The notes under the pieces were generated by a model. It was given only the letters and a program-made list of their open reading frames with translations, made no database searches and was not told the DNA's origin. This document shows, in pieces, positions 4,079-23,101 of a stretch of DNA of 39,552 nucleotides. The position numbers were made by a program, and so were the translations under genes. Every line of letters begins with the position of its first letter. Position 1 is the first letter of the stretch. Location of the stretch: the UHGV virus genome UHGV-0150234, one strand, 5' to 3'. The DNA comes from a virus.

Positions 4079-4894
4079 ATGGATACTATCGTTGTGACAG
4101 CTCCATCACCATCAACTAACTTACCGAGTTATGGTAATGGCGCATTTTCTCTCTCAGCACCACACGTGCCTGGTTCTGGCCCCCTTTTAGTCCAGGTGGT
4201 TTACAGCTTTTTCCAGAGCCCAAACATGTGTATTCAGGCTCTAACTCAGCTTGAGGACTACATCAAAAAACACGGTGCCAGCGATCCCCTGACATTACAA
4301 ATTATGTCAACAAATATTGCCTACTTCTGTAACGCTGACAGAAACCTTATCCTTCACCGCGGAATAAGTGTTTATGACGCCTACCACTTAGCTAAACCTG
4401 CGCCAAATAAATATGACTATCGCTCAATGAATATGAAACAAATGAGCGGTAATGTCACAACACCAATTGTGGCGCTTGCACACTATTTATGGGGTAATGG
4501 TGCAGACCGAAGCGTTAATATCGCAAATATTGGTCTCAAAATTTCTCCGATGAAAATTAATCAGATAAGAGATATTGTAAAATCTGGTGTAGTAGGCACA
4601 TTCCCTATTTCTACAAAATTCACACACGCCACTGGCGATTATAATGTTATTACCGGCGCATATCTTGGTAATATCACGCTGAAAACAGAAGGTACTTTAA
4701 CTGTCTCCGCTAATGGCTCATGGACCTATAATGGCGTTGTTCGCTCGTATAACGACAAGTATGACTTCAATGCCAGCACTCATCGTGGCGTAATCGGAGA
4801 GTCTCTTACAAGGCTCGGGGCGATGTTCTCTGGTAAAGAGTATCAGATACTACTTCCTGGCGAAATTCACATTAAAGAAAGTGGCAAGCGATAA
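4079..4894 (+). CDS. cma: Colicin M (lipid II-degrading bacteriocin), 271 aa
   Basis: Full-length, near-identical to colicin M as recalled (same 271-aa length, ...VTAPSPSTNLPSYGNGAFSLSAPHVPG..., C-terminal ...GEIHIKESGKR). AT-rich relative to flanks. Confidence 0.92.
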   Translation: MDTIVVTAPSPSTNLPSYGNGAFSLSAPHVPGSGPLLVQVVYSFFQSPNMCIQALTQLEDYIKKHGASDPLTLQIMSTNIAYFCNADRNLILHRGISVYDAYHLAKPAPNKYDYRSMNMKQMSGNVTTPIVALAHYLWGNGADRSVNIANIGLKISPMKINQIRDIVKSGVVGTFPISTKFTHATGDYNVITGAYLGNITLKTEGTLTVSANGSWTYNGVVRSYNDKYDFNASTHRGVIGESLTRLGAMFSGKEYQILLPGEIHIKESGKR

Positions 4895-4944: not shown

Positions 4945-5301
4945 TCAATCATTTGCATATTCAACATAACCTTCCTTGCAATGGTACATTCCATAATACA
5001 TTCTCTTACCTTCCGGGCCTTCGGCTTTAAATGGGACGAGAAGCGTTTTTTCATCTTTAACATCTGTTAAGCTTCTTTCAATCTTTTCCCACGTAATTTT
5101 TGGGGCTTCTGTACCGAGAAGTTGTACATCGTTATTCCAACGCGTTATTTTTTTCAAAAAGTCATTTTTTACAAATTCTCTTGCCTGTTCATCACTAACC
5201 TTATAGCACTCTGGGCCTTTATTAGATTCAGGCCAGAAAAATACAATAGCAAGAGCAATAATTGATAAAATCAAAATGATTTTTATGCTAATTACTTTCA
5301 T
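4945..5301 (-). CDS. cmi: Colicin M immunity protein (membrane-anchored, periplasmic), 118 aa
   Basis: N-terminal hydrophobic anchor (ILILSIIALAIVFF) and strong resemblance to Cmi as recalled (…KITWEKIERSLTDV.DEKTLLVPFKAEGP.GKRMYYGMYHC.EGYVEYAND); convergent with cma. Confidence 0.88.
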   Translation of the reverse strand: MKVISIKIILILSIIALAIVFFWPESNKGPECYKVSDEQAREFVKNDFLKKITRWNNDVQLLGTEAPKITWEKIERSLTDVKDEKTLLVPFKAEGPEGKRMYYGMYHCKEGYVEYAND

Positions 5302-5428
5302 AAAATCTCCATCACCTTAAAAGCAAAACATACATATTTAGCCTTCATATTGTATGAGTATATCAATACAGTGTGTGCTTAATGTGAAGTAAAATTAACA
5401 ATATATAAACATTTAATATGCCGCGCAC

Positions 5429-5836
5429 TTAGTCGGCTTTATGAGTATCAACCATATACTTCAACCAGTAATCAACAATCGGTTGCTCATCTACAGAATG
5501 TTTACCAGGTATAACTCGCCAGCTATCTTGCGAAAATCTGCCGTACTTACGCGGGAATAGGCCTTTCTTTATCTCCCGCCATGTACTAGGAAAACCATCC
5601 ACAAAAGTACCAATTAACAGGAGAGGGACAAAAATCAGAGCTACAAACCATCGTGCAAGAAAGTGTTCAACAACAACATTTTCACCGTTGTAGTAATACG
5701 CATACGCATCCAATATGCGAATTTTCCTTACCTTAAAAATAGCCTTATGCTGAGAACGACTTAACTTGATACGAATGTATCCCTTATCCAAAGGGGATTC
5801 GTATTTGTATGATTGAACAGCCATTTTTAACCCCAC
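5429..5836 (-). CDS. Hypothetical protein with one predicted transmembrane segment, about 131-135 aa
   Basis: ORF with hydrophobic stretch WFVALIFVPLLLIGTFV; overlaps the upstream ORF by 10 nt (operon-like). No family recognised. Confidence 0.5.
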   Translation of the reverse strand: MGLKMAVQSYKYESPLDKGYIRIKLSRSQHKAIFKVRKIRILDAYAYYYNGENVVVEHFLARWFVALIFVPLLLIGTFVDGFPSTWREIKKGLFPRKYGRFSQDSWRVIPGKHSVDEQPIVDYWLKYMVDTHKAD

Positions 5837-6156
5837 TCACCATCAGCAAACAAAGCGTTATACTCTGATAATGGTAAATGATGCCCCTCAATTGCCAGAT
5901 TAAGCCCCAAATGGGTAGATGGGTGTTCCTTATCTGGCTCCTCCTCCCACAATTCAGAAGCTAAAGAAGCTAAACGCTCAGCCGCTTTCACGTAGTTTTC
6001 TGTCCTGAACCAACCCAAATTAATCCCACCATCAGTGATCTCCCAGGCAACTTTCTTCTCTTCTTCCTGAATAGCCTTAATGCGTCGATCGCATTCATCC
6101 CGGCAGAACTTCAGCTGACGGTAATCAAGTTTGTCCAAAAATGCAGTAGTAGACAT
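5827..6156 (-). CDS. Hypothetical protein, 109 aa
   Basis: ORF immediately downstream of repA on the same strand. No family recognised. Confidence 0.5.
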   Translation of the reverse strand: MSTTAFLDKLDYRQLKFCRDECDRRIKAIQEEEKKVAWEITDGGINLGWFRTENYVKAAERLASLASELWEEEPDKEHPSTHLGLNLAIEGHHLPLSEYNALFADGEWG

Positions 6157-9200: not shown

Positions 9201-10210
9201 TCTGTGGCAGATTTCCGGTCATTATCCAGTGCGCAGGTGATTTTTGCCGCCGGGTACATGTTTACCAGTTGTTCCACAACATGAACCATGTTGTTAGCGG
9301 ATACAGCGACAACCACAGCGTCAAAGCGTTTATCTTTTTTCGTGGCAAGCCAGATGGATGCACCAGTAGCAAAACCTTCTGTAACAGCGATGTTTTGCGC
9401 CCCTTTCAGCTCACCGATAACAAAGCAGGCACCGACGAAATCGCCGCTGGTTACTGCGCTGGTCTGGTATTTCCCACCTTGTTTGTCGATTCGCTGCCAA
9501 CCCACAATACGACCATCATAACGACCGTCCAGGTGAGCCAGAGGGATAGCCATATATGTGGTTGGCCCCCGGCTCCATTTCGCACTGTCGTGACTGGTCA
9601 CGCGACGCACATCACATGAACTAAAAACGTCACGAATACCTTTTTTAATCGCATATGGCCATGAGCCGTCTTCAGCCTGAGCATGTTCCCACGCGCTGTG
9701 GAATGCCAGCCATCCCAGCAAACGTTCATGGTCCATTTGGTTGTTTTTCAGGTCATTAATTCGTTTTTGTTCTTCACGGCGACGACGTGCTTCGGCCTGA
9801 CGTTCTATTCTTTCCCGTTCTTCTTCCGGTTGTGCGACCACGGTCGCATTATTCCGTTGTTGCTCACGGCGATATTCAGAAAACAGGAAGGAGAAACCGC
9901 TCCATGAGCCAGCATCGCTGCCTTTATGGACGAAGTTAATGAACGGGTAATCAATCCCTTTGCTGTGTTCCAGCCTGGAGTAAATTTCTACGCGTCCTTT
10001 CAGGCTCTTTTCGAGAGCTTCTGGAGATGTTTTATTGTATGAAGAGTAACGCTCAACCCCCCCGCGAGGGTTGAGTTGGATGTTGTCGGAACAGGCAGGC
10101 CAGTTGATACCAGCCATCTGTGCCAGCTCGGTTAGTTCATCCCGTGCTGCTTCAATTAGCGAGAACGGATCGCTGCCAAAGCGATCCGCATAGAAATCGT
10201 TTAATGTCAT
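6215..10210 (-). CDS. repA: Multifunctional replication protein RepA (primase-helicase), 1331 aa
   Basis: Size and position match N15 RepA (about 1324 aa from memory). Walker A motif GMGSGKST is present. Downstream of cB on the same strand. The N15 origin is reported to lie inside the 3' part of repA (recalled, not located here). Confidence 0.9.
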   Translation of the reverse strand: MTLNDFYADRFGSDPFSLIEAARDELTELAQMAGINWPACSDNIQLNPRGGVERYSSYNKTSPEALEKSLKGRVEIYSRLEHSKGIDYPFINFVHKGSDAGSWSGFSFLFSEYRREQQRNNATVVAQPEEERERIERQAEARRRREEQKRINDLKNNQMDHERLLGWLAFHSAWEHAQAEDGSWPYAIKKGIRDVFSSCDVRRVTSHDSAKWSRGPTTYMAIPLAHLDGRYDGRIVGWQRIDKQGGKYQTSAVTSGDFVGACFVIGELKGAQNIAVTEGFATGASIWLATKKDKRFDAVVVAVSANNMVHVVEQLVNMYPAAKITCALDNDRKSATEGKGNTGLRTGYEILSKFNDVRCVYPTFEDDPQMECSDFNDLHKLRGLRETARQLFATANRLKTGTDLLSLTLNRLKTIKRDNRRTFAKELLRAVDIGMLTCPVPNSPSDLFNMFCIVLREMGLENIYRATVKDHIARRLNKKCRIAQAPRSFSERITDPNKRPQHITYKRFDTSVMTDDVLKYVQSLQGIVIVRAGMGSGKSTGLLRPLMHSSERGISVAHRVSLIGGLWEMMTEGKGVKADILHYQDPGYQEMAPYASKLTICINSIVKNCWQPLMRQHDYFGFDEATQGLRAVLSGRAMENPVAVFNTLIDALARTEQHPIMVDADANDLLVDLAELAMKRREELGLPAWLQIHVIELPVDVRNRETGEPIRVFYTEKDRIMTEVVKAVSDGEKIMLATDSSTFAEDVTATLRMHFPGKKFLCVNQKNKPEPEVEAFTNQPKKMVKKYDGLIYSPSISSGVSIEQKHFDRHFGMFCGEVVPSDAVQMLRRDRTAKEFIIGFDKARAKRETDPQKIERAFAQALLATAGMNGELTDVVFDGDRISMGVANTDFTRMKIKAAAIEASARNDYASNMICIMHSDGYKVSPLATDYAANDIGKDLRKEARDIVWEQTLDLHLNTETPQESEREELLKKRALTLEEQAKLVRWDIENELKLPVEEGTLKFYFDGARDKVRRYETMLLDEVTARRYDREEAAINFTYAYRQAGQWQYFVVTAMTREQADDVFKTKFPGIIDYKVKATPTVEVGARGFYALKSATLRQYFIDCGINPETMTGEATQERLKFARDNLMTAERRDLLNNVLHIGGFMTPKGKPKVPEALFKNICDSLGLKTGKRRGRDGDKRPTLRFVEPESAAFMLDILAQRQKDGLTLKTRKAEKTAIEMDRDLDLNIYMDDKTRSTNEQVQNAPHSVISEALAVLPVAVPESWAMSALSCEELATMSSWSSASIAMTFASLYLTEFMDHLSSNELRRLREYITGNSPCSYEEQGAFYG

Positions 10211-18760: not shown

Positions 18761-19033
18761 ATGAAGATGGATGAACGATACAGCAGCGCACCTTATGGTA
18801 GTGCTGGTCTTACTGCGTTCTTTGCCAGCCTGTCATTGCAGGATTGGGGCTTCATTATCGGTGTCGCGTTCAGCATTATCCTCGGTGTACTTACATACCG
18901 GCTCAATAAACGCGAGCAGATGAAGCGCACGAAGATATTGCAGGACATATTGGATAAAACTGATGCCAATAATATTTCCGCCACGGCGATGGTTATTGGT
19001 GAATTGGGAAAGAGAGCACCGAAGGAAATATGA
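18761..19033 (+). CDS. Holin, phage-21 S21 pinholin-like, 90 aa
   Basis: Two hydrophobic segments and resemblance to S21 as recalled; directly upstream of a SAR endolysin with ATGA overlap. Confidence 0.8.
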
Positions 19034-19527
19034 TGCAGTCATCATTACGCAAAGCTGTCGCAACTGCTATTGGTGGCGGGGCTATTGCCATAGCATCTGT
19101 GCTCATCTCTGGTCCGAGCGGCAACGATGGTCTGGAAGGTGTGAAACATAACCCCTACAAAGACATCGTTGGTGTATGGACTGTATGTTACGGGCATACA
19201 GGAAAAGACATTATGCTCGGTAAAACGTATACCGAAGCTGAATGCAAAGCTCTCCTGAATAAAGACCTTGCTACTGTCGCCAGACAAATTAACCCGTACA
19301 TCAAAGTCGATATACCGGAAACAACGCGTGGTGCTCTTTACTCGTTCGTTTACAACGTGGGTGCAGGCAATTTCAGAACATCGACGCTTCTTCGCAAAAT
19401 CAACCAGGGCGATATCAAAGGTGCATGTGATCAACTACGTCGCTGGACATATGCTGGCGGTAAGCAATGGAAAGGGCTGATGACTCGCCGTGAGATTGAG
19501 CGTGAAGTCTGTTTGTGGGGGCAGTAA
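19030..19527 (+). CDS. R: SAR endolysin (phage-21 R21-type lysozyme), 165 aa
   Basis: N-terminal signal-anchor-release segment [23 protein letters not shown] followed by a lysozyme domain; near-identical to R21 as recalled. Confidence 0.92.
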
Positions 19528-19988
19528 TGAGCAGAGTCACCGCGATTATCTCCACACTGGTTATCTGCATCATCGTCTGCCTGTCGTTGGCTGTTAATCA
19601 TTACCGTGATAACGCCATCTCCTATAAAGAGCAGCGCGACAAAAACGCCAGAGAGTTGAAGCTGGCGAACGCTACCATCAAAGACATGCAGATCCGCCAG
19701 CGTGATGTAGCGGCTCTGGATGCCAAATACACGAAGGACTTAGCTGATGCCAAAAAGCAGCTTGATGATTTGCAGCGTTGTGTTCGCACTGGCAAGTGTG
19801 GGCTGCACCTCAACGCCAGATGTCCCGCGAACGGAACGACCATCACCGGCGGCCTGGGCGATGCTACCGGCCCCCGACTTACTGACTCCGCTGAACGGGA
19901 TTATTTCATCCTCAGAGAGCGAATCGTCACAGTGACGAAACAGGTTGGATATTTGCAGGAGTACATCAGGACGCAATGCCTGAATTAA
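19527..19988 (+). CDS. Rz: Rz i-spanin, 153 aa
   Basis: ATG at 19527 overlapping the endolysin stop; N-terminal transmembrane segment; coiled-coil; contains the embedded Rz1 frame. Confidence 0.8.
19747..19935 (+). CDS. Rz1: Rz1 o-spanin (lipoprotein) embedded in the +1 frame of Rz, 62 aa
   Basis: Signal peptide ending in a Cys, then a Pro-rich region with PAAWAM..PLNGIIS resembling lambda Rz1 as recalled. Confidence 0.65.
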
Positions 19989-20029
19989 TCCATCTGCATC
20001 AAAAACTAACTTAATTTGTTGGATAGTAA

Positions 20030-20341
20030 ATGAAAATTTATATTGCCGGACCAATGACGGGATATGAGAATTTTAATCGTGACGCCTTTAATAAAGAGGC
20101 TGAGCGTTTGTCACGTCATGGTCATTCGGTCCTGAATCCAGCCACTTTACCCAATGGCCTGACGCAACGTGAATACATGGATATTTGCTTTGCAATGCTT
20201 CGTTCTGCTGATGCTATTTTGATGCTTCCTGGCTGGAAAGCGTCTGCTGGAGCAACTGCTGAGTATCATTACGCATACAAGATGGAGATGCCGGTATTCA
20301 CTACGCTGAATTACCCGCCAGCTTGTTCCTCTGTAGCATAA
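20030..20341 (+). CDS. DUF4406-like protein (nucleoside 2-deoxyribosyltransferase-like), 103 aa
   Basis: MKIYIAGPMTG N-terminus typical of this family in lambdoid prophages (recalled). Confidence 0.6.
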   Translation: MKIYIAGPMTGYENFNRDAFNKEAERLSRHGHSVLNPATLPNGLTQREYMDICFAMLRSADAILMLPGWKASAGATAEYHYAYKMEMPVFTTLNYPPACSSVA

Positions 20342-20360
20342 AAATCTCTTTGTTTCTCGT

Positions 20361-20378
20361 GTGCGACCGTGGTCGCAC
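20361..20378. other. sopC-like centromere-type palindrome GTGCGACCGTGGTCGCAC (copy 3 of 5)
   Basis: Exact 18-mer, directly followed by a 70-bp repeat unit. Confidence 0.6.
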
Positions 20379-20388
20379 GCTAAATTCC

Positions 20389-20458
20389 GCGCTGCATCGT
20401 CGCCGTATTCCCGCATTAACTATGACCGTAGCCCGACGGGGAACTCCTTCTGCGCGAG
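20389..20458. repeat. About 70-bp repeat, copy A (GCGCTGCATCGTCGCCGTATTCCCGCATTAAC...CTGCGCGAG)
   Basis: About 90 percent identical to 22174-22242; both copies sit beside sopC-like palindromes and bracket the AT-rich island. Confidence 0.7.
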
Positions 20459-20581
20459 TGTGCGGGAATAATCAAAAACGATGCACACCGGGTTTTTACC
20501 GCGCTATTGATTCGCGGGTTTGTCCCTCATGTTCGCCAGTCCTGTGCGAGGGTGGAAGAAACAGGGCATGTATTCAGGAGC

Positions 20582-20599
20582 GTGCGACCGTGGTCGCAC
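20582..20599. other. sopC-like centromere-type palindrome GTGCGACCGTGGTCGCAC (copy 4 of 5)
   Basis: Exact 18-mer 24 bp upstream of the 20623 start codon. Confidence 0.6.
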
Positions 20600-20622
20600 G
20601 GTATCTTTGTCAGGAGGTTTTG

Positions 20623-21483
20623 ATGAAAGAGTTGCAAAAAATTAATTCAATAATGGAAAGGTTAAGTGCTCTTGAGCGTAAGCTGGACGATTGTGGAAAG
20701 CTGTGTGTTGAAAAGCAAAATGAGCTTTACCGGGAATTTTTTACAATCGTAAGTGAGCTGATGCCAATTGTTAATAACTGCCTGATGACATCCAGATTTT
20801 TTAATGTCGATGCTACTACATCCAGAAAATTTTCTGTGAAAATTCAAGAAAGAGTTTCTGGTAGTGTGACAAGAGAGATGGCTGAACAGTTGGTGGCAAT
20901 GAGCAATAAAACAAAAAGAAAAAAGGCATTGCTTGTAACAGCAAATCAGCTTTCAGGGCGCGTTGACTTTCAGGTCAGACAGGGTGGGCGTGTACTGGTA
21001 AATGATGCGTTCGTTGGACGTAGCTTTAGTCCTTACTCGATGAAATATGATGTTGATGCAGATGATCAGGATATCAGCATTTCCTGGAAATCTGAGACAG
21101 CAGGGATTGTATTAACAGCAGAGTTGTTGAATGATGATAAAAATGATGTCCAGCATCATTTGGACGAAAAGAATCATATTTCTGAAATTTGTATGAAGCC
21201 ACGCAGCGGAATGACTTTATTGTCACGCACTCTTGCTGCTGGCTTTTCTGCACCGGAAAAACGTGTGCTTCTGGTAGTGCCTGAAGATGCAGATATTCGA
21301 CCACTGAATGGCTGTGATGTTATTAGTGCAAAAACATTGCATACCCGCGTCATTCCTGTACCGGATGTGGTCATTATTGATGATGTTGAGAAATGCAAGT
21401 CTGTTTCCTCAACTGCCACAATCAAGCGAATTTTACGTTGTAGCACGTCGGCTGTTGTATTCCGGAAGCAGTTACATAACTAA
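20623..21483 (+). CDS. Hypothetical protein of unknown function, 286 aa (first gene of AT-rich cargo island)
   Basis: ATG at 20623 preceded by CAGGAGG; the track's longer ORF from 20323 would read through the palindromes and repeat, so the N-terminal extension is rejected. Confidence 0.6.
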   Translation: MKELQKINSIMERLSALERKLDDCGKLCVEKQNELYREFFTIVSELMPIVNNCLMTSRFFNVDATTSRKFSVKIQERVSGSVTREMAEQLVAMSNKTKRKKALLVTANQLSGRVDFQVRQGGRVLVNDAFVGRSFSPYSMKYDVDADDQDISISWKSETAGIVLTAELLNDDKNDVQHHLDEKNHISEICMKPRSGMTLLSRTLAAGFSAPEKRVLLVVPEDADIRPLNGCDVISAKTLHTRVIPVPDVVIIDDVEKCKSVSSTATIKRILRCSTSAVVFRKQLHN

Positions 21484-21607
21484 CCAGTTTTGTTTTGCAG
21501 AACATCCTCAACTAAAAGCTTATAGAAAGAGAGCCTGAGATATTTTTTCTGTCTCTCGTAGTTGTTTGTTTTTTTTCGAACAGACTTACAACTTACAGGA
21601 TATAAAC

Positions 21608-22057
21608 ATGCAAGAAGAAGCAAATAAAATTCTTGTTGATTTATTGAAGAAGGCCAGCGATGGAATTGATTCCGCCATTGTATTCAGTCAGGCTCAAATT
21701 CCGGATGTTGTTCATCAGTTGCTGGTATGGAATATGGTTGATAGCCTGATTAAAACATTAATAGCCATTTCAACAATTCCGCTGGTTATTTGGTTTATGA
21801 AGAAACAGTGCAAAAAAGTTGAAATTGGTAAGTTCGATAATGAAGGACGCTCATGCGATAATGGACAGCCTAAATACAAACCGACTATGATTTGGGAAAG
21901 TGACGGTAGGTTAAGTGGTTTTGTCTTACCATTAGTAGCAGTTTTTATTCTATGGTTCAGTTTTATTATTTCTGTAGTAGCCAATATGACATGGTTAAAA
22001 ATTTGGCTGGCACCTAAGTTATATCTAATCGAATACGCAGCATCACTAATTAAATAG
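21608..22057 (+). CDS. Hypothetical membrane protein with two predicted transmembrane segments, about 150 aa (second gene of cargo island)
   Basis: Hydrophobic segments LIKTLIAISTIPLVIWFM and FVLPLVAVFILWFSFIISVV; AT-rich; followed by a hairpin at 22067-22092. Confidence 0.55.
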   Translation: MQEEANKILVDLLKKASDGIDSAIVFSQAQIPDVVHQLLVWNMVDSLIKTLIAISTIPLVIWFMKKQCKKVEIGKFDNEGRSCDNGQPKYKPTMIWESDGRLSGFVLPLVAVFILWFSFIISVVANMTWLKIWLAPKLYLIEYAASLIK

Positions 22058-22173
22058 TCCATTACAAAAGCCATTCGCTACTGAGTGGCTTTGATAATGG
22101 CTTATACCCTGCACGGGATAACTTAACTGATATCCCTTTTAACGGATAAAGGTATTCAAGCCTGACACATCAT

Positions 22174-22242
22174 GCGCTGTATCGTCGCTGTATTCCCGCA
22201 TTAACCATGACCGTAGTCCGACGGGGAACTCCTCTGCGCGAG
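22174..22242. repeat. About 70-bp repeat, copy B
   Basis: Matches 20389-20458 with a few substitutions; followed 25 bp later by a sopC-like palindrome. Confidence 0.7.
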
Positions 22243-22266
22243 CATGCAGGATGTTGATTCATTGCT

Positions 22267-22284
22267 GTGCGACCGTGGTCGCAC
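22267..22284. other. sopC-like centromere-type palindrome GTGCGACCGTGGTCGCAC (copy 5 of 5)
   Basis: Exact 18-mer between the cargo island and cos. Confidence 0.6.
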
Positions 22285-22329
22285 GACGCAGGTCTGTCAG
22301 ACATTGAATTCATTGCGAATAAACTAGAA

Positions 22330-22555
22330 CGCCTGCGGGTCCTTTCCGGCGATCCGGCAGGCTACGGGGCGGAAGGCGCGCGGGTTTTCGCTATTTATGA
22401 AAATTTTCCGGTTTAAGGCGTTTCCGTTCTTCTTCGCCGTAACTTCATGTTTTTATTTAAAACACCCCCTGAAAAGAAAGGAAACGACAGATGCTGAAAA
22501 CGGGCTTTTTGGCCTCTGTCGTTTCCTTTCTCTGTTTTTGTCCGTGGAATGAACA
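22330..22555. other. cos: cos region (candidate cosN at 22367-22378 GGGCGGAAGGCG, lambda-like cosB downstream to the Nu1 start)
   Basis: Sequence from 22379 (CGCGGGTTTTCGCTATTTATGAAAATTTTCCGG...) matches the start of the lambda genome as recalled, but the 12 nt at the cohesive-end position differ from lambda GGGCGGCGACCT. Confidence 0.55.
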
Positions 22556-23075
22556 ATGGAAGTCAACAAAAAGCAGCTGGCTGATATTTTCGGTGCGAGT
22601 ATCCGTACCATTCAGAACTGGCAAGAGCAGGGAATGCCCGTTCTGCGAGGCGGTGGCAAGGGTAATGAGGTGCTTTATGACTCTGCCGCCGTCATAAAAT
22701 GGTATGCCGAAAGGGATGCTGAAATTGAGAACGAAAAGCTGCGCCGGGAGGTTGAAGAACTGCGGCTGGCCAGCGAGGCAGATCTTCACCCAGGAACACT
22801 TGAATTTGAGCGCCATCGCCTGACTCGTGCTCAGGCGACGGCGCAGGAACTGAAAAATGCCAAAGAATCGGCTGAAGTGGTGGAAACCGCATTCTGTACT
22901 TTCGTGCTGTCGCGTATAGCAAGGGAAATATCCAGTATTCTCGACGGTATTCCTCTGTCGGTGCAGCGACGTTTTCCTGAGCTGGATAACCGGCATATTG
23001 ATTTCCTGAAACGGGATATCATCAAAGCCATGAACAAAGCAGCCGCGCTGGATGAACTGATACCGGGGTTGCTGA

Positions 23076-23101
<26 letters not shown>
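22556..23101 (+). CDS. Nu1: Terminase small subunit Nu1, 181 aa
   Basis: Near-identical to lambda Nu1 as recalled (MEVNKKQLADIFGASIRTIQNWQEQGMPV...). Confidence 0.95.

Follow-up and report, generated by a model that had tools for sequence, protein, structure and literature searches.

Two described systems lie closest to the locus reported here: the inverted-repeat (IR) centromere sites of phage N15, and the accessory slot between the lysis gene Rz and cos in lambdoid phages, with its boundary sequences. In work that rebuilt the N15 centromere with oligonucleotides, IR1 and IR4 were given as GTGCGACCACGGTCGCAC, IR2 as the form with TC and IR3 as the form with AT (Table 4, PMC7205306). In the N15 genome, IR2 follows the Q gene (35931), IR3 lies between gene 51 and the late promoter (41125) and IR4 lies between gene 58 and gene 59 (45562), gene 59 being the last gene before cos. 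Here we describe the corresponding region (positions 20361 to 22284) of UHGV virus genome UHGV-0150234, a stretch of 39,552 nucleotides referred to as a whole as the window. Two genes, termed A and B, are found there between the lysis cassette and cos, in an island bracketed by repeats and palindromes, and a preliminary description had put them forward as a candidate defence or exclusion pair. We interpret the locus as a probable accessory slot, assembled by recombination at the 3′ terminus of the late operon in an N15-like phage-plasmid, and not as a dedicated two-gene system.

Predicted centromere sites and a lambdoid boundary block at the island

The window was assigned, from its gene content, to an N15-like (Ravinvirus) linear phage-plasmid in prophage orientation, because it contains a protelomerase and an N15-type RepA, has Ravinvirus relatives, and has a 97 % identical relative with sopA and a ParB/SopB-family gene. 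The protelomerase (215-2104, TelK/ResT domains) opens the window and is followed by the giant N15-type replication protein on the minus strand. The late region runs from an N6 methyltransferase through holin, lysozyme and Rz (18761-19988) to cos, a lambda-type terminase, and head and tail genes, and the window ends in the tail genes. The sop genes lie outside it; in NZ_CP117614.1, a complete relative with 97 % identity across the island, sopA and a ParB/RepB/Spo0J (ParB/SopB-family) protein are encoded on the other arm. The nearest database relatives are plasmids of E. coli, E. albertii, E. fergusonii and Shigella together with Ravinvirus phages, the plasmids being mostly ~46-48 kb and typed as non-mobilizable.

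Three copies of the palindrome GTGCGACCGTGGTCGCAC were located at the island: pal1 (20361-20378), pal2 (20582-20599), which lies 24 bp upstream of the A start codon and also has a terminator-like score, and pal3 (22267-22284), ~80 bp upstream of the cos region. Further copies occur at 9832 (one mismatch), 12275 and 17326, and strand-matches in the window number 12 against 0.05 expected by chance. The palindrome has the N15-type IR form, an 18-bp inverted repeat GTGCGACC-NN-GGTCGCAC, and comparison with PMC7205306 showed the window palindromes, pal1 among them, to be the reverse complement of IR1/IR4. The label 'sopC-like', given to them earlier, was right as to relatedness and too weak as to degree, since they are identical to SopB sites of N15 that have been used experimentally. 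By this identity, the three island palindromes are predicted N15-type SopB centromere sites. Sites stand at N15-equivalent places in the window (12275, 17326 and 20361/20582/22267), with the IR4-position site, single in N15, present three times within 1.9 kb and bracketing cargo. NZ_CP117614.1 has exactly six palindrome sites, all in the same positions as those of the window, and the pal2 palindrome is kept upstream of A or A-like open reading frames (ORFs) in four relatives (L022, L016, L024 and L025). The six SopB-type sites of the window compare with four (IR1-IR4) described for N15, and the site at 9832 falls inside the replication gene.

A direct repeat also brackets the island, with 93 % identity over 60 nt between 20389-20448 and 22174-22233; when one indel is admitted it reaches 20467 and 22251, giving two copies of 70-79 bp. 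These paired repeats and palindromes, including the extra palindrome at 20582, had been noted in the preliminary description and were recovered in full. The repeat is a fragment of a ~300-bp block, divided here into Bflank, rep and cons, that is sited between lysis-side accessory genes and cos/terminase. The block was matched between Rz and cos in 327 phage records, its three parts are contiguous in Ayreon and Stx2 phage 1717, and its first 115 bp were found in 2508 of 5426 complete E. coli genomes. On the plus strand of the window, the left unit consists of rep copy 1 (20389-20467), identified by repeat alignment and phage matches, and cons (20468-20578), which occurs in this unit only and is 94 % identical to lambda-like phages ~100-300 bp from their right end. 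The right unit consists of Bflank (22058-22173), the widespread first part, and rep copy 2 (22174-22251, repeat alignment), next to which cons has been lost. A hairpin at the start of Bflank is annotated as a terminator in phage Ayreon and is without a T-run in the window. RNA structure predictions for both repeat copies on both strands gave z-scores of -0.8 to +1.3, none significant, and Rfam (E-value mode) returned only chance-level microRNA and long non-coding RNA matches in 19900-22700. We read the block as a mosaic boundary sequence that would provide shared homology in module exchange. Comparable 'boundary sequences' are marked in the annotation of CUS-3.

Variation of the slot among relatives

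The slot between the lysis genes and cos varied extensively among relatives. In the window, L001 and L030, the order is DUF4406 gene, palindrome, rep-cons, palindrome, A, B, Bflank-rep(-cons), in some cases a further palindrome, and cos. An N15-like plasmid of E. fergusonii (L025) has a single palindrome, pal*, between the DUF4406 gene and A, and B is followed by Bflank-rep-cons, a palindrome and cos. In pal*, the left flank of pal1 is joined to the right flank of pal2; these flanks are the exact junction expected from recombination between pal1 and pal2. The contiguous series DUF4406-pal*-A-B recurs in an unrelated lambdoid phage with a DUF1441-type small terminase (L024), in which A and B are 95 % and 99 % identical to the window genes, the homology stops inside cons and no exact copy of the palindrome is present. 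B is absent from L016 and L106, where palindrome, rep-cons and palindrome are followed by a 69-aa ORF and cos. L022 has a lambdoid genomic context (RusA, Q-like, HicAB) and the order Rz, Bflank-rep-cons, palindrome, A (80 % identical), cos, with neither B nor the DUF4406 gene. Internal deletions truncate A in YDC107_1 and L017. In N15 and Klebsiella-type relatives the order is gp56, DUF4406, (Dcm), IR4, gp59-like gene and cos. Both N15 and several close relatives lack the A-B island. The full island was found in 28 of 5426 complete E. coli genomes, and 29 of 3358 matching places were on plasmids.

The breakpoints between these variants fall at the palindromes and the conserved block. Because the variant junctions sit there and relatives show deletion and exchange products, the comparison supports real recombinational exchange in a variable slot, with a cassette that has moved between phage types. 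Two proposals made earlier, that the lysis-to-cos slot varies and that its cargo is exchanged by recombination at the repeats, are borne out by this comparison.

The post-IR4 slot is filled by gene 59 in N15 (L007, 5697-6320) and in Klebsiella-type relatives (L065, L142 and L147). A region of N15 gp59 matches central tail fibre J families (phrog_31, E 3e-9; phrog_2589, E 6e-13), and a J-like domain in this small non-structural protein might indicate a receptor-related function. No significant similarity was found by BLASTP between A and N15 gp59.

Composition and expression signals

Calculation confirmed the AT-richness of the island: its GC content (20601-22173) is 0.387, the 1.7th percentile of same-size windows. 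Values for A and B are 0.407 and 0.358, those for the repeat-plus-palindrome units 0.575 and those for the flanks 0.50-0.58. Other AT-rich patches occur in the window, for example at 1-1000 and 5001-6000. The island thus shares two properties of morons, patchy presence in close relatives and a composition distinct from its flanks. A and B lie on the strand of the lysis cassette (the late-operon strand), directly downstream of the lysis genes. A simple sigma-70 consensus search found five promoter-like sites in 19900-22700 against 5.0 expected, none of them upstream of A or B.

Distribution and selection of A and B

Both ORFs of the preliminary description (286 aa, and 149 aa with two hydrophobic stretches) were confirmed, and RefSeq calls both. 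The ratio dN/dS was 0.26 for A, at a dS of 0.40 against the diverged L022 copy, and ~0.2 for B against 70 % identical homologues, with dS ranging from 0.4 to 0.9 over these tests. Because of these values, A and B are judged to be genuine genes under purifying selection.

A is found without B in L022, where it is intact, and in L023, and B is found without A in more than 1000 clusters and in another genomic slot; cluster counts are 15 for A and at least 1675 for B. Co-occurrence across lineages, as in an obligate two-gene module, was not seen, and no family in PADLOC-DB matched A, B or the DUF4406 gene at E-values up to 1. B is also unlike a lysogen-expressed abortive-infection module, because its relatives are located in early lytic operons, which are off in lysogens, and in virulent phages. 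From their distributions, A and B are read as two independent genes, not a functional pair. The proposed defence or exclusion pair of one soluble and one membrane protein finds no support in these observations, nor in the promoter search, in which no signal exceeded chance. For the wider idea of an undescribed defence system, the analysis brought neither support nor refutation, and the case is weak. A recent survey of N15-like phage-plasmids does not mention the locus and found none of them to have a complete defence system.

The A and B proteins

The statement that no family is recognisable for either protein was correct for Pfam, NCBIfam, PADLOC and PDB sequences, none of which matched A or B with single sequences or profiles; it was not correct for PHROGs, in which A belongs to phrog_2571 (E 2e-163) and B to phrog_3054 (E 1e-56), both families of unknown function.

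Gene A (20623-21483, plus strand) encodes a 286-aa cytoplasmic orphan protein, and is called as the same coding sequence (CDS) by RefSeq in relatives. Its ATG is preceded, at a distance of 7 nt, by a strong Shine-Dalgarno sequence (AGGAGG). The protein comprises an N-terminal helical hairpin (~1-58), a beta domain (~101-169) and a C-terminal alpha/beta domain (~190-280). Homologues of A formed 15 clusters in a word-indexed search of 5.8 billion sequences, every source-named one from Escherichia. An exhaustive HMMER search of 1.84 billion representatives yielded a single one of full length, besides fragments and two remote relatives with partial matches. Both remote relatives share the central beta domain of A, and P0143, located between Q and holin of a lambdoid prophage, also has an A-like helical region, at its C-terminus. 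In an Stx2a phage, a 74-aa CDS overlaps the stop codon of Rz and matches P0143 over its first 55 aa, and the 69-aa pre-cos ORF of L016 and L106 is homologous to A residues 11-60 (phrog_2571, E 1e-6). Because the 69-aa homologue, P0143 and the 74-aa CDS all stand in late-operon slots, A has the appearance of several small modules fused together, of a sort that move among such accessory slots.

The C-terminal domain of A contains a degenerate Walker-A-like loop (PRSGMT, within MKPRSGMT), in which Met replaces the catalytic Lys in all homologues. The Walker A motif of P-loop NTPases, GxxxxGK[ST], is not present in it, and the fold resemblance is weak. The structure model of this domain is of low confidence, and Foldseek preferred beta-sandwich plus SGNH-type architectures, at a template modelling (TM) score of ~0.15. 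The model bears a weak likeness to a P-loop/RecA-type fold without the catalytic lysine. As this lysine is lost, A is more likely to be a binding protein than an enzyme, and a non-enzymatic binding role can only be proposed, on weak grounds.

Gene B (21608-22057, plus strand; the same CDS is called by RefSeq in relatives) encodes a 149-aa protein with hydrophobic stretches at ~46-64 and 105-127, seen in the sequence and as AF2 helices. Its family comprised 490 clusters by single-sequence search and at least 1675 by profile search, which includes distant homologues. Among the 120 matches listed per search, none had a Pfam domain or a name beyond 'hypothetical' or 'uncharacterised'. Homologues with 70 % identity belong to the pL operon of P22-like and lambdoid prophages of Salmonella, E. 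coli, Citrobacter and Cronobacter, where N is the gene immediately upstream, sieB lies alongside in the opposite orientation, and cIII and kil follow. Distant homologues were found in N4-like, phi92-like, Vibrio, Pseudomonas and jumbo Ralstonia phages, with those of virulent phages in early-gene regions. Comparison of the B profile with the neighbouring SieB (family PF14163) by hhalign gave a probability of 0.5 %, and B had no Pfam match. No holin family in Pfam or PHROGs matched B, whose homologues stand in early operons and not in the lysis cassette, and Foldseek against BFVD predicted viral structures returned no matches.

Conservation in the B family is concentrated at the termini. The first 45 and last 22 residues are near-invariant, and remain so in an N4-like phage of Salmonella whose homologue is 39 % identical overall, while the hydrophobic helices and the intervening loop vary in sequence and length. 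Nearly all differences between the two B alleles of N15-like elements lie in the loop and the second transmembrane helix (TM2; pN 0.14 vs pS ~0.10), with a pN of ~0-0.01 in the termini. Near-invariant termini around a variable middle suggest contact of the termini with a partner in the cell that is itself conserved. A charge tally for membrane topology was ambiguous. Codon 83 of B (21854-21856) encodes Cys in the window and Trp in >90 % of the family, including the otherwise near-identical L025 allele, and the window copy may be a mildly impaired allele. In the Salmonella and E. coli prophages L008-L015, the gene after the B homologue always starts at locus position 5503, with varying identity (pentapeptide-repeat protein, HNH_3 nuclease or Phage_P22_Y8K6 family protein). 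Position 5503 is a sharp mosaic boundary in the pL operon.

Origin and role of the island

In the explanation that we favour, recombination at the block and palindromes would have stacked cargo and duplicated the repeat-plus-palindrome units, with A and B as independently mobile genes for two lytic-cycle accessory proteins. Since no autonomous promoter was detected, both genes are most likely transcribed by Q-antiterminated read-through of the late operon. They would probably be quiet in the lysogen, in an AT-rich stretch between SopB-bound sites, where silencing is conjectured. B is probably an inner-membrane protein, the near-invariant terminal helices of which may engage a conserved cellular target in lytic growth. 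Among the functions considered for B, exclusion or protection of the envelope ranks first, at a probability well short of even; lysis timing and another host target are alternatives. Several points weigh against this account. AT-richness and patchy distribution are as expected for lysogen-expressed morons, and the consensus search could have missed weak or atypical lysogen promoters. A and B occur together in most E. coli N15-like carriers (28 genomes), where they may cooperate. No function could be assigned to A or B by homology, and SopB occupancy of the palindromes, like any silencing, is a prediction.

Four other explanations were weighed against an accessory slot with independent cargo. 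It is unlikely that A and B act together as an abortive-infection or superinfection-exclusion module that the prophage-plasmid expresses and that protects the lysogen from other phages. An AT-rich, patchily distributed island in a known moron slot would suit such a module, as would the adjacency of A and B in most E. coli N15-like carriers and the loop and TM2 of B, where pN is at least equal to pS between alleles as in an arms race; a soluble-plus-membrane layout is also common in abortive-infection and exclusion systems. Nevertheless, A remains intact and under purifying selection without B, and B occurs overwhelmingly without A, in early lytic operons and virulent phages. The absence of PADLOC matches and of an above-chance promoter, and the position on the late-operon strand right after the lysis genes, point the same way. 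A doubtful but tangible possibility is that B by itself excludes superinfecting phages or blocks their injection during the lytic cycle, as an inner-membrane protein comparable in function to T4 Imm, P22 SieA and HK97 gp15, with A as unrelated cargo. B is a small and very widespread two-helix membrane protein with a variable centre and conserved termini, and its homologues occupy the N-sieB-cIII accessory region of prophages and early regions of virulent phages, all of which would be consistent with exclusion. However, B resembles neither SieB (hhalign 0.5 %) nor any named family, its charge tally leaves the topology ambiguous, and the greatest conservation is in the termini and not in the loop, which speaks for a conserved partner in the cell and against a part in recognising varied phages as they enter.

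A role of either or both genes in tuning lysis or the end of the lytic cycle, with B as a holin/antiholin-type regulator, A as its cytoplasmic partner and both as part of the lysis cassette, is improbable as well. The genes do follow holin, endolysin and Rz directly on the same strand, a 74-aa P0143-like CDS overlaps the Rz stop in an Stx phage and P0143 itself lies between Q and holin; yet the relatives of B are in early operons distant from lysis genes, B has no holin match in Pfam or PHROGs, and N15 and several close relatives lyse without either gene. Least probable is that the A and B ORFs are decaying, functionless remnants trapped between repeated DNA. Deletion variants that truncate A are common and the window B has Cys where >90 % of the family has Trp, as decay would predict, but dN/dS is 0.2-0.26 over dS of 0.4-0.9, full-length frames are kept in many lineages and A retains its strong Shine-Dalgarno sequence.

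The locus has wider meaning in three respects. It gives a clear view of centromere palindromes and shared pre-cos blocks acting as joints through which cargo is swapped between phage-plasmids and ordinary lambdoid phages. The clustering of three of the six SopB sites at an AT-rich cargo island opens to test the question of whether accessory genes are also insulated or silenced by partition complexes. The B family, very large, uncharacterised and with unusually conserved termini, is the best lead and a good target for a functional screen. Its carriers include temperate phages (lambdoid and P22-like) and N15-like phage-plasmids as well as virulent phages (N4-like, phi92-like, Vibrio and jumbo). 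On a speculative view, to which we give a low probability, it could be an unrecognised, widely shared class of phage inner-membrane effector that targets a conserved bacterial membrane component via its termini and that was recruited in N15-like elements to a slot flanked by SopB sites, where the partition protein would hold it silent until induction. It might then, for instance, keep out superinfecting phages or disarm an abortive-infection system based in the membrane.

Neighbouring genes and cos

The left neighbour of the island, directly 3′ of the lysis cassette, is a DUF4406 (nucleoside 2-deoxyribosyltransferase-like) gene (20030-20341, plus strand; Pfam PF14359, E 7e-34). It is a homologue of N15 gene 57, itself annotated DUF4406, and the PHROG label of the family is nucleotide metabolism. 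To the right, on the plus strand, lies the cos region (22336-22555; 96-98 % identity to the cos region of relatives), followed by Nu1 (22556-23101); Nu1 and GpA have Pfam matches in relatives. The cosN-like 12-mer of the window (22367-22378) is GGGCGGAAGGCG, unlike GGGCGGCGACCT, the version of lambda and N15. The cos DNA around the variant 12-mer is otherwise lambda-like, and the variant is shared with L016; some viral-contig relatives, judged from ORF translations, appear to keep the lambda version.

On the protelomerase arm, a 271-aa ORF of the colicin M family (4079-4894, plus strand; Pfam PF14859, E 8e-145) adjoins, in opposite orientation, a 117-aa YebF-like ORF (4945-5301, minus strand; PF13995, E 9e-8). 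A YebF-like fold is also that of Cmi, the immunity protein for colicin M. By these matches, the two ORFs look like bacteriocin-plus-immunity cargo, in an AT-rich patch (GC 0.38-0.41).

Comparison with known systems

B is like SieB, T4 Imm, P22 SieA and HK97 gp15 in being a small phage membrane protein, and its prophage homologues adjoin sieB in the N-cIII region; it differs from them in that homology is not detectable and in that its conserved parts are the termini, not an exposed loop. The C-terminal domain of A differs from P-loop/RecA-like NTPases (SF2 helicase domain 1) in the replacement of the Walker A Lys by Met and in being much shorter.

The island resembles the lambdoid Rz-to-cos moron slot (bor in lambda; Rha, KilA-N and HNH genes elsewhere) in its position, varying content and AT-rich cargo, and in having conserved flanking DNA, common to hundreds of phages, as recombination joints. 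It differs in that the boundary block is present in duplicate, with centromere sites interspersed. A promoter and a terminator of their own are features of classical morons such as bor, whereas neither an own promoter nor a clear terminator was detected for A and B of the window.

The closest likeness is to N15 IR1-IR4, especially IR4 upstream of gene 59. The 18-bp sequence of the window sites is identical, they likewise stand downstream of Q, ahead of the late promoter and ahead of the final cargo gene before cos, and cognate SopA and ParB/SopB proteins are encoded by a close relative of the window. The differences are that six sites are predicted in the window in place of four, and that the IR4-position site is triple, around different cargo. 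This triplication around cargo is new with respect to the described systems, as are the evidence for centromere palindromes as recombination joints and the cargo genes themselves.

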